From: a virus
IMG/VR virus record: IMGVR_UViG_3300028197_001221
Location: 1-64,000 of that record
Length of the DNA stretch: 64,000 nucleotides
Reading direction: 5' to 3' (one strand)
A program made the translations under genes and the position numbers. The notes below the pieces were generated by a model. It was given only the letters and a program-made list of their open reading frames with translations, searched no databases and had not been told where the DNA came from. Positions 11,534 through 12,938 of this stretch are shown piece after piece; the stretch's first letter is position 1, and every line of letters begins with the position of its first letter.

Positions 11534-11565
11534 TAAGATTCTAACACTATATAAATTTTATTAGA

Positions 11566-11601
11566 GGGTATAATAAGATATTAAGACACACAACGTGTCT
11601 T
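11566..11601 (+). promoter_or_regulatory. putative promoter (GGGTATAATA, perfect TATAAT) and 5' hairpin for the DUF1559 cassette
   Basis: TATAAT 11569-11574 in an AT-rich gap; stem AAGACAC(11583-89)/GTGTCTT(11595-601); no good -35. Confidence 0.45.
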
Positions 11602-11636
11602 CTACCTTTTACACAATCTTATTGAAAGAAAACGCT

Positions 11637-12626
11637 ATGTTTAAAAGACTTAAACAACTGTTCACAAGCCCAAAGCGCAATGCTTTTACACTAATCGAGC
11701 TACTTGTTGTGATTGCCATCATTGGCGTTCTCGTTGGTCTTTTGTTGCCAGCTGTTCAGCAAGCTAGAGAAGCTGCACGAAGAATGTCATGTGCGAATAA
11801 TTTAAAGCAGCAAGGTCTTGCTATGCACACATACATGGACGCACAAAGATACTTTCCTGCTGCTGCATGGACTGTAGATTCTGCTGGATTATCTCCTACT
11901 GGCAATCGTTCTGGTACAGAACATAGTTGGAGAGCGTTTGTTCTTTCTAGTCTAGAACAAGGTAACACTGGCTATGACTTCAATAAAAACTGGTGGGAAA
12001 ATACTCAAGCTATTTCTTTAAATGCTTCTGTATTTATATGTCCAACGGCAGTTCCTCCTGCTGGTGGTTATGCTAATATTGATGGGCCTACTAGAGATGA
12101 TGATAGTGCTGCTATTAGTATGAATCCTAATAATCTTGGATATACAGACTATGAAACTTTTACAGGGGTTAAGAGCAAGATATTTCCTGCTGCTAGTGAT
12201 CCTTATGCGGCGAAGGATCGTAACGAAGGATGTTTAATTAAAGATGCTGTTACTAGAGATGCTCATATTAGAGATGGGTTTTCTAATACTTTCTTAATTA
12301 TAGAGTGTGCAAGTAGACCTGATGTTTATAAAAAAAGTAATGGTAGATCGGCAACAGGTGATACTAACCAGTGCATTGGTTGGGCTGATAGTGTTGGGCC
12401 ATTTAAGTTAGATGGTATGGATAGTAATGGAGATAAGTGTAAAAATTGTGCTGGTAATATTCCTTTTAATGTTACTAATAATGGTGAAGCATACAGTATG
12501 CACCCCGGAGTAATGAATACAGTATATGCAGACGGTTCTACTAGAACCGTTAATGATAATGTAGACTTGAGAGTTTTCGCTAGTGCTATTACCCGTGCTG
12601 GTGGAGAAGTAGGAACCATTGACTAA
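11637..12626 (+). CDS. DUF1559-family prepilin-type (class III signal peptide) protein with H-X9-DG C-terminal motif
   Basis: [85 protein letters not shown]. Start set at ATG 11637. Confidence 0.93.
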
Positions 12627-12738
12627 ACCTCTAAGCAAAGAGTATTTATTGAGCAGAGGTGTTTGTTGTGGTAGTGGATGCAAAAACTGCCCCTATGTGC
12701 CTAAAAACACTAGGGGCAGCAAGGAAGTTAAAAAATGA
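12619..12738 (+). CDS. 39-aa Cys-rich DUF5522-like protein (not in ORF track)
   Basis: TTG start with AGGA upstream; [39 protein letters not shown]. Confidence 0.75.
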
Positions 12739-12938
12739 ATATAATTGGTATATTTGAAATTGCTGCTGGAGTTATTCTGGCTAAACTTGTTATAGGAATA
12801 TTGAATGAAAGTTATTGGTATAAATGGGAGAGAGTACGCTTGGAATTTAACAAGCTATTCAGTAGACGCAAACGACAAAAGGAAGAGATCAAAATTCCAC
12901 GTTCGTGCAAGAAATCTCTTGAAGACTATCTACCATAG
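12735..12938 (+). CDS. putative small membrane peptide overlapping the downstream nuclease gene
   Basis: ATGA coupling to upstream ORF; AAGGA RBS; hydrophobic IIGIFEIAAGVILAKLVIGIL; 134 nt out-of-frame overlap with 12805. Confidence 0.45.
   Translation: MNIIGIFEIAAGVILAKLVIGILNESYWYKWERVRLEFNKLFSRRKRQKEEIKIPRSCKKSLEDYLP

Follow-up and report, generated by a model that had tools for sequence, protein, structure and literature searches.

Phage-borne DUF1559 and its closest described relatives

DUF1559 is one of the largest protein families of the Planctomycetota without a known function, and the phages of this phylum are barely described. Here we analyze a DUF1559 gene carried by a phage, in a window that comprises the first 64 kb of the IMG/VR virus record IMGVR_UViG_3300028197_001221 (G000; 125,941 bp, linear, 81% complete by CheckV). 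We use "DUF1559 cassette" for the unit made up of a CTAACA box, a -10 element, a 5' stem-loop, and the DUF1559 gene. There are at least 41 DUF1559 genes per Planctomycetales genome, and two-domain proteins occur in detergent-soluble (S2 and S3) fractions, according to one report (PMC8567305). In the main text of a 2025 review (PMC12673574), the word "phage" appears once and "virus" never. Full-text literature searches, a structure search of BFVD, and a tblastn search of 50,697 INPHARED records turned up no phage-borne DUF1559, which bears out the statement in the original prediction, made from the DNA sequence by itself, that no characterized phage example is known. Literature searches for phage-encoded prepilins and for planctomycete phages yielded nothing pertinent.

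The protein of the window resembles the DUF1559/H-X9-DG family of the Planctomycetota in having the full domain, a methylation motif with Glu at +5, DGxSNT, H-X9-DG, and 27 invariant residues. It differs from the bacterial members of the family in being phage encoded, in its changed leader, in its lack of a C-terminal tail, and in the AT-rich third positions and CCWGG-free sequence of its gene. With GspG/PulG and the type IVa pilins it shares a class III signal, a hydrophobic helix of ~50 residues, and weak fold matches, but its globular part, at ~260 amino acids (aa), is twice the size of theirs, no assembly genes are nearby, and the GspG equivalog TIGR01710 is matched in its N-terminal part only, at 35.6 bits versus a cut-off of 88.85, so the protein is not GspG. 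The "pilin" profile phrog_3433, which PHROGs places under "moron, auxiliary metabolic gene and host takeover," has 127 positions and no DUF1559 domain, and its match is limited to the N-terminal helix (residues 12 to 50; E = 1.6e-07). Phage-borne pilin-like genes exist as a class, as this profile exemplifies, and host-derived genes on phages are common.

Two further comparisons concern the genetic unit and its possible effect. Morons, known for instance from lambdoid phages, consist of a gene with its promoter and are found as insertions between core genes. The DUF1559 cassette is like them in its presence or absence between conserved neighbors, in having a promoter-like element of its own, and in having no core-cycle role; unlike them, it has no intrinsic terminator, a small open reading frame (ORF) starts at the stop codon of its gene, and a covarying 5' stem-loop is part of the unit. 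Tip of D3112 and Aqs1 of DMS3, both from Pseudomonas phages, are small cytoplasmic inhibitors of the pilus motor that provide pilus-directed superinfection exclusion. They resemble the DUF1559 protein in the outcome proposed below, a phage product that disables a receptor pilus, but they are not pilin homologues and have no sequence relation to it; the likeness is one of possible action and not of membership.

The features of the cassette are as follows.

11541..11546, + strand: conserved upstream box CTAACA, 22 nt before the -10 hexamer; found in contexts A and B1 and in locus L008
11566..11574, + strand: GGGTATAAT, a perfect TATAAT (11569-11574) with a conserved GGG, kept across loci
11583..11601, + strand: 5' stem-loop with a 7-bp stem and a 5-nt loop, starting 8 nt after the -10 hexamer; minimum free energy -7.7, z = -3.8
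11637 (ATG)..12626, + strand: DUF1559 prepilin-like gene, 329 aa, assigned by profile matches; leader M1-A16 at 11637-11684, predicted cleavage before F17

The gene had been predicted to encode a full-length DUF1559 protein, and all five motifs that were named can be read in its translation. PF07596 (DUF1559; SBP_bac_10) matches at 137.6 bits (cut-off, 23.3) and covers profile positions 1 to 267 of 268. The other family profiles also exceed their cut-offs: PF07963 (N_methyl) at 31.8 bits versus 21.2, TIGR02532 at 27.2 bits versus 16.3, and TIGR04294 (H-X9-DG) at 26.4 bits versus 19, at residues 285 to 306. The N-terminal methylation motif is F17-T-L-I-E21, with Glu at +5, and H289-X9-D299G300 and TRAGGE are readable toward the C terminus; H289 and D299 are invariant across 81 sequences, and 27 of 27 family-invariant residues are kept in the phage copies. 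GTG 11595 is an alternative start for this ORF, but ATG 11637 is preferred because the GTG falls within the hairpin and because relatives align from the ATG-encoded leader.

An AlphaFold model based on 81 aligned sequences (predicted local distance difference test score, 90.9; predicted template modeling score, 0.84) has a helix at residues 19 to 70 and a mixed globular part. A Foldseek-independent structure search with VIA-align gave 25 PDB chains with Z ≥ 2; type IV pilins or pseudopilins account for 20 of these and for all of the top 17. PilA4 (4.5), EpsG (3.6), and PulG (3.1) are among them, and all are weak matches. A sequence search of the PDB gave matches restricted to the N-terminal helix, and the ESM Atlas gave generic DUF1559 clusters only.

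Insertion of the cassette and its spread among phages

The genes at 8870-16537 of the window overlap or abut, and the sole gap between them, 103 nt at 11534-11636, lies just before the DUF1559 gene. This agrees with the arrangement originally described, in which the gene sits between recA and a nuclease gene in an otherwise gap-free series, and profile searches match both flanks. The genes around the cassette are as follows.

10421..11533, + strand: RecA/UvsX-like recombinase, a backbone gene and the upstream flank; PF00154 at 76.1 bits, phrog_97 with E = 1.4e-34
12619..12738, + strand: 39-aa Cys-rich micro-ORF, DUF5522; PF17653 at 37.5 bits versus a cut-off of 25; TTG start 5 nt before the DUF1559 stop
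12735..12938, + strand: 67-aa ORF (orf67) with a hydrophobic N-terminal stretch; overlaps the DUF5522 stop (ATGA) and, in another frame, 134 nt of the nuclease gene
12805..13230, + strand: nuclease, a core gene and the downstream flank; phrog_9084 with E = 1.4e-12, phrog_559 with E = 1.7e-11

Genes for DnaB, primase, ribonucleotide reductase (RNR), and DNA polymerase follow the nuclease, and a terminase gene is in the other half of the record; with these genes around RecA and the nuclease, the setting is a large phage.

An IMG/VR scan found the DUF1559 gene in 30 distinct viral contigs, with 71 to 99% protein identity, and 14 of them share the order of the window (RecA, DUF1559, DUF5522 where present, orf67/nuclease, DnaB, primase; context A). 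A second scan of IMG/VR with RecA as the query gave 372 related contigs, of which we examined the best 80; 76 of these have enough sequence after RecA to be assessed. RecA is joined directly to orf67/nuclease in 72 of the 76, and the cassette is present in 4, all of which are contigs already among the 30. Because 72 of 76 relatives have RecA and orf67/nuclease side by side, the cassette is, judged by gene order, an insertion between RecA and the nuclease. The original prediction had named a chimeric assembly as one way in which it might fail; the gene occurs in contigs from many samples, and an assembly chimera is excluded because the same gene order recurs in 14 of them.

The nuclease follows RecA in 80 of the 80 best RecA loci, at 66 to 99% identity, and it was rejected as a homing endonuclease on this ground. 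It also follows RecA in the phages G403 and G405, which are described below, and in G403 the two genes are 18 nt apart. Separately, the RecA-nuclease junction is a hot spot for insertion, with other inserts of 600 to 1560 nt in 7 of the 72 loci (L147, L160, L162, L163, L173, L174, and L195).

Of the two coupled micro-ORFs first described after the DUF1559 gene, one comes with the insert. The DUF5522 micro-ORF is 78 to 100% identical in 12 of the 14 context-A loci, and among the 80 RecA loci it occurs only in the 4 that hold DUF1559; by this distribution it is part of the insert in the RecA context. The second, orf67, instead belongs to the backbone because it is present directly after RecA in relatives that lack the insert (45 to 66% identity). 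It had no family match in the profile searches. This putative gene evolves much faster than the nuclease (45 to 66% versus 81 to 91% identity in relatives) and was undetected in 27 of the 28 more distant loci L181 to L208, the exception being L189.

A further ORF starts at or beside the DUF1559 stop in 17 of 22 loci, often at a TTG 5 nt before the stop, and the products are different small proteins. One of these is a 61- to 66-aa ORF at the DUF1559 stop codon with a hydrophobic N terminus and a conserved ...WKPRDFYLVYKMWTDEEYRNVN... tail (L004:6971-7156, with equivalents in L003, L024, L012 to L014, L017, L020, and L026), which is present in both RecA and rIIA contexts. In other loci, this coupled start belongs to DUF5522 or to a larger ORF.

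The DUF1559 gene lies away from the RecA-nuclease site in 16 of the 30 contigs. At 14 loci it is upstream of rIIA/rIIB, in some cases flanked by epimerases of the GDP-mannose-dehydratase type, and three records with this context are 157 to 195 kb long and rated 100% complete. L008 is on the same contig as L133, a member of the RecA group of the window, with its DUF1559 gene ~42 kb from RecA, and in L018 the gene has a further, unique context. The rIIA/rIIB phages G403 and G405 are distantly related to that of the window and share 28 and 38, respectively, of the 102 ORFs of G000, with a syntenic replication block. Compared with the window, their RecA is 34 to 35% identical, their DnaB 46 to 48%, their primase 28%, and their RNR 60%, whereas their DUF1559 proteins are 91% and 73% identical and are encoded at a nonhomologous site. 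In the gene tree, DUF1559 copies from RecA and rIIA contexts are intermixed. Based on this comparison of contexts, the cassette is portable and has been passed between divergent large phages into different sites.

These phages have no close cultured relatives in INPHARED, where the best identities are 33% (rIIA) and 29% (DnaB). The label "T4-like" is not used here for the rIIA/rIIB phages, since PF07068 (Gp23) matched none of G000, G403, and G405 nor any control genome. G405 has a second DUF1559 gene (L221:10723-11796, - strand; 357 aa; 34% identical to that of the window; PF07596, 160.5 bits), which is within the replication block, between homologues of the window genes 16537-17262 and 17259-18296. 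Its relatives are found in 4 viral contigs (also L227 to L229), and it looks like an independent acquisition.

The upstream signals accompany the gene in its different settings. Their common order is the CTAACA box, a spacer of 21 to 22 nt (32 nt in two loci), GGGTATAAT, 8 to 13 nt, and a stem-loop of 5 to 8 bp. Of 19 distinct upstream regions, 16 have the hairpin, with differing stem sequences, and no hairpin was found upstream of DUF1559 in L014/L026, L017, and L018. In an alignment of 14 hairpin-bearing upstream regions, in which centering each segment on its own predicted loop is a bias toward structure and the position of three rIIA-context rows one column out of register is a bias against it, pairing occurs in 82.7% of cells versus 62.4% in shuffles. 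There are two-sided changes at 6 of the 7 pairs, and the covariation score of 0.675 (versus 0.279 in shuffles) was matched by 0 of 500 and falls to 0.12 to 0.17 in slid registers. By these alignments, all three upstream elements (box, -10 element, and hairpin) move together with the DUF1559 gene from one context to another.

The composite pattern of box and TATAAT occurs once in the window versus 0.03 expected. We rejected the box and -10 element as a general phage promoter, since the 4 matches in each of G000 and G403 are close to the 2.8 and 3.8 expected, and we rejected the hairpin as a recA terminator, since it follows the -10 element, has no clean U-tract, and moves with the cassette to other contexts. 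A terminator scan found no terminator-like site after the DUF1559 gene. The TATAAT and the 5' hairpin first described for the gene are present; there is no canonical -35.

Planctomycete origin and long residence in phages

In a search that covered 5.8 billion proteins, identity to the window protein forms a continuum from 92% to ~49% and then drops to ≤44% for ordinary DUF1559 paralogues, with the nearest bacterial clade at 50 to 57%. A 140-row tree has a 69-row clade (Shimodaira-Hasegawa-like approximate likelihood ratio test [SH-aLRT], 95) in which all 22 viral-locus sequences fall. The partner of this clade is a bacterial group including 26 rows (support, 100) with the leader MLHTAHSSQPTGSRNRG and a C-terminal tail, and members of this group are on contigs of up to 2.94 Mb. 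The phage copies lack the C-terminal tail (...REPNIEW) of the nearest bacterial clade and have a different, often shorter, leader.

The GTDB genome "Pirellulales bacterium MAG-32" (a metagenome-assembled genome [MAG]) has a member of the clade (533.6 bits). Of 171 genomes sampled from the GTDB family to which it belongs, with 12 candidates scored per genome, 69 contain a match to the profile at E ≤ 1e-60, and in 66 of these there is exactly one. When 26 sequences from genomes of this family were added to the tree, the viral clade remained single (SH-aLRT, 99) and sat inside a clade (support, 100) with Pirellulales-family members, nested among further orthologues of the family. The simplest reading of this tree is that the phage gene stems from one capture of an orthologue from a marine Pirellulales (Planctomycetota) family. 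The planctomycete origin suggested by the first inspection of the sequence therefore stands, and the comparison with planctomycete paralogues narrows it to one orthologue group, apart from the bulk of the paralogues. The metagenomic runs that contain the window stretch are from marine, seawater, and sponge sources, and the captured gene links abundant, uncultured large marine phages to a Pirellulales family.

We also considered a verrucomicrobial origin. One protein of the sister clade, on a 1.9-kb contig, is labeled Rubritalea sp., and the neighboring Dld gene has homologues that are 61 to 67% identical in 5 of 301 sampled Verrucomicrobiota genomes and in 0 of 301 Planctomycetota genomes. This origin was dropped because six clusters (90% identity) of donor-neighbor proteins have NCBI MAG labels of Pirellulales, Planctomycetaceae, or Planctomycetota bacterium, one of them on a 521-kb contig that also has a clade member, and because the clade is present in 69 of the 171 family genomes. 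Broad samples gave no clade member in 401 Verrucomicrobiota genomes, in 401 Planctomycetota genomes, in a small sample of 5, or in 401 genomes of the order of G299, and these results are sampling misses and not absence. A scan of genome contigs with alignment A1 was swamped by the generic pilin N terminus, and the best match was 40% identical among the matches listed.

The donor gene order is Dld, DUF1559, Phytase-like (PF13449, 132.9 bits), a small lipoprotein, choice-of-anchor I (326 bits), PSCyt/PSD, and DUF1501, and it is constant in the metagenome loci L115 to L122 and the GTDB loci L230 to L235. The lipoprotein gene, two genes downstream of DUF1559 and 150 to 175 aa long, is hypervariable, and the outer flanking genes are 91 to 97% identical between strains. 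Between close donor strains, the synonymous divergence (dS) is 0.6 to 0.8 for DUF1559 and 1.1 to 1.3 for the small lipoprotein, compared with 0.1 to 0.4 for the flanking genes. The ratio of nonsynonymous to synonymous divergence (dN/dS) is alike for all these genes (0.1 to 0.28), and both dN and dS are raised in DUF1559 and the lipoprotein. On these alignments, the pattern is that of a surface locus whose old alleles have been retained or exchanged. One protein, P0020 (1.4-kb contig), has the bacterial-type leader MLHTAHFSQPTGSRNRG on a phage-type body and C terminus, is 74% identical to the window protein, and groups with the viral locus L017 in the tree; it may represent an exchange between phage and host alleles.

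Among 171 pairs from 19 distinct phage copies, dN/dS has a median of 0.145, an interquartile range of 0.119 to 0.176, and a maximum of 0.29; constraint is strongest in the N-terminal helix (0.04). By these values, purifying selection acts on the phage copies. The dS of relatives to the window copy is 0.45 to 1.76, and the GC content at third codon positions (GC3) of the window gene is 0.225, compared with a mean of 0.258 ± 0.048 for the phage and 0.33 to 0.35 for bacterial orthologues, in agreement with the earlier remark that its codons mostly end in A or T like those of the phage.

A second codon-level trait is a Pro-Gly codon rule, which was noted from the window and is real: across 83 ORFs, Pro is encoded by CCC or CCG in 66 of 66 Pro-Gly pairs. 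The reason is that the genome holds no CCWGG; neither CCAGG nor CCTGG occurs in the 126-kb record, versus ~90 expected (arithmetic from base composition). In three donor-clade orthologues, the Pro-Gly of the conserved His-Pro-Gly in the H-X9-DG motif is written CCT GGA or CCA GGC, which makes a CCWGG site, whereas 22 of 22 phage copies have CCC or CCG there; since the site is missing from every phage copy, the gene has been reshaped by life in these phages. Compared with a recent capture, which would be near-identical to a host copy and free of purifying selection, the gene is only 50 to 57% identical to the nearest bacterial clade and is constrained. Long residence in phages, as first proposed from codon usage, is supported by the dS values, the dN/dS, and the recoding away from CCWGG.

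Avoidance of CCWGG is not a trait of DUF1559 carriers as such. There are 0 sites in the 171-kb G405, 3 versus 172 expected in the 30 DUF1559 loci (L002 to L031), and 0 versus 315 expected in the 52 closest RecA loci, most of which are without the gene, while the more distant RecA relatives are mixed (33 versus 134). We therefore regard it as lineage-wide and rejected it as a carrier trait. The bacterial donor loci, with a GC content of 46 to 50%, have CCWGG at about the expected frequency. These counts suggest that the hosts have a CCWGG-specific restriction system. G403 (157 kb; L209 to L216) has 101 CCWGG sites, just one of which is in its first 35 kb, where the DUF1559 cassette and rIIA/rIIB sit, and this CCWGG-poor stretch could be a recombinant block or a sign of a chimeric record.

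Possible roles of the phage DUF1559 protein

We propose, with about an even chance of being right, that the cassette remodels a pilus-like surface apparatus of the host during infection, by way of host processing of a phage-encoded subunit. The DUF1559 gene would have a promoter of its own and be transcribed separately from the replication genes around it, and the 5' stem-loop would protect the message, as 5' stem-loops are known to stabilize messages. The host prepilin peptidase would cut the 16-aa leader before F17, the long hydrophobic N-terminal helix would anchor the phage protein in the inner membrane, and the protein would then compete with or replace the host orthologue in type II secretion or type IV pilus-like assembly. 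The preferred pay-off would be a change of the surface, for instance a receptor that is masked or withdrawn, which would shut out later phages or keep progeny from being lost on cells already infected.

Several observations bear on this proposal. A search for a prepilin peptidase (Peptidase_A24, PF01478) was negative for both G000 and the 171-kb G405, which is complete, and going by these gene contents, the phage cannot process its class III signal itself. The donor-lineage genome G1201 has one Peptidase_A24, and because the peptidase is present there and missing from the phages searched, the phage protein likely enters the host pilin pathway. We lean toward surface remodeling and exclusion because DUF1559 and the lipoprotein are hypervariable in the donor and because the distribution of the gene in phages is patchy and moron-like. 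One metatranscriptome library has mismatch-free contigs at 11491-11691, 11665-11957, 12040-12190, and 12211-12457, which is a weak hint that the cassette is expressed; RNA-library contigs may stem from DNA and do not establish transcription, its start, or its level, and stretches left uncovered in the RNA libraries X4, X17, and X18 have no significance.

Other observations weigh against the proposal. The RNA-library contig that spans the promoter begins at 11491, upstream of it, which suggests read-through or contaminating DNA. The promoter is a putative one, a consensus match without a canonical -35, and a sigma-70 consensus scan does not call it because there is no TTGACA-like -35. The canonical -1 residue of a class III signal is Gly; the window copy and several relatives have Ala (A16), and other phage copies and the bacterial clade have Gly. 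The best pilin structural match has a Z of only 4.5, rated weak by the tool, and Foldseek gave no match at E ≤ 0.001 against the PDB and BFVD. Processing, membrane insertion, assembly, and phenotype are predictions, and the host, probably a marine Pirellulales bacterium, is inferred only from the origin of the gene. Retention of all invariant residues is at least as compatible with a protein that works normally as with a decoy, and the conserved donor cluster with secreted Phytase-like and choice-of-anchor-I proteins favors a role in nutrient capture.

In that case the gene would be a nutrient-acquisition auxiliary gene, an extra working DUF1559 for capture or secretion of a substrate, possibly organic phosphorus, that keeps uptake going during infection, much as marine cyanophages carry host-derived phosphate-binding genes. 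We consider this, the main rival, possible but on the unlikely side. In its favor are the conserved donor cluster, the purifying selection that preserves the 27 invariant residues in the phage copies, and the position of the gene among other host-like genes (GDP-mannose dehydratase and epimerases) in rIIA/rIIB phages. However, the phages took the pilin-like part only, since no homologues of the donor neighbors were found in G000 or in the 30 DUF1559-bearing viral loci L002 to L031, and the host C-terminal tail is missing from the phage copies, whose leader is altered. In addition, the gene is rare among close relatives (4 of 76), and the link to phosphorus is based on family names alone.

It is also conceivable, though we think it improbable, that the host DUF1559 orthologue is part of the structure by which phages enter and that the phage copy is a working stand-in that rebuilds or blocks it. 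If so, an arms race would have left its traces in the hypervariability of DUF1559 and the lipoprotein in the host, in the mixed protein P0020, and in the transfer of the cassette among divergent phages. Phage pressure would then be one driver of the huge expansion of DUF1559 in the Planctomycetota, and the cassette would be the first experimental handle on DUF1559 function.

A pilin-like component of the phage particle or of an adsorption or infection structure would also be conserved under purifying selection, as this gene is. We consider this very improbable, since the gene is located in regions of the replication or early type and on the other strand from the large structural genes, is accessory and absent from 72 of 76 close relatives, and encodes a class III signal for which a membrane peptidase of the host is required. 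An artifact or passenger (chimeric assembly, host contamination, or recent capture without a role) can practically be dismissed, since, even though the window record is a linear fragment and the best DNA run may be its source sample, the same junctions recur in 14 contigs from other samples, the gene is in three complete records, its dN/dS is 0.145 with a dS of up to 1.76, it is only 50 to 57% identical to the nearest bacterial clade, its GC3 agrees with that of the phage, and it has been cleared of CCWGG sites.

Whether the phage protein remodels the surface or has another of these roles, phages have long kept one DUF1559 orthologue under selection and traded it among lineages, which argues that the family acts at the cell surface or the interface with phages, or in something worth boosting during infection. 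The box, -10 element, and 5' stem-loop also form a compact natural expression unit that may be usable in planctomycete genetics.

Elsewhere in the record, two giant ORFs are back to back on the minus strand, at 45291-58913 (4540 aa) and 58919-66859 (2646 aa). Part of the latter has homologues in G403 and G405 that are 46% identical.

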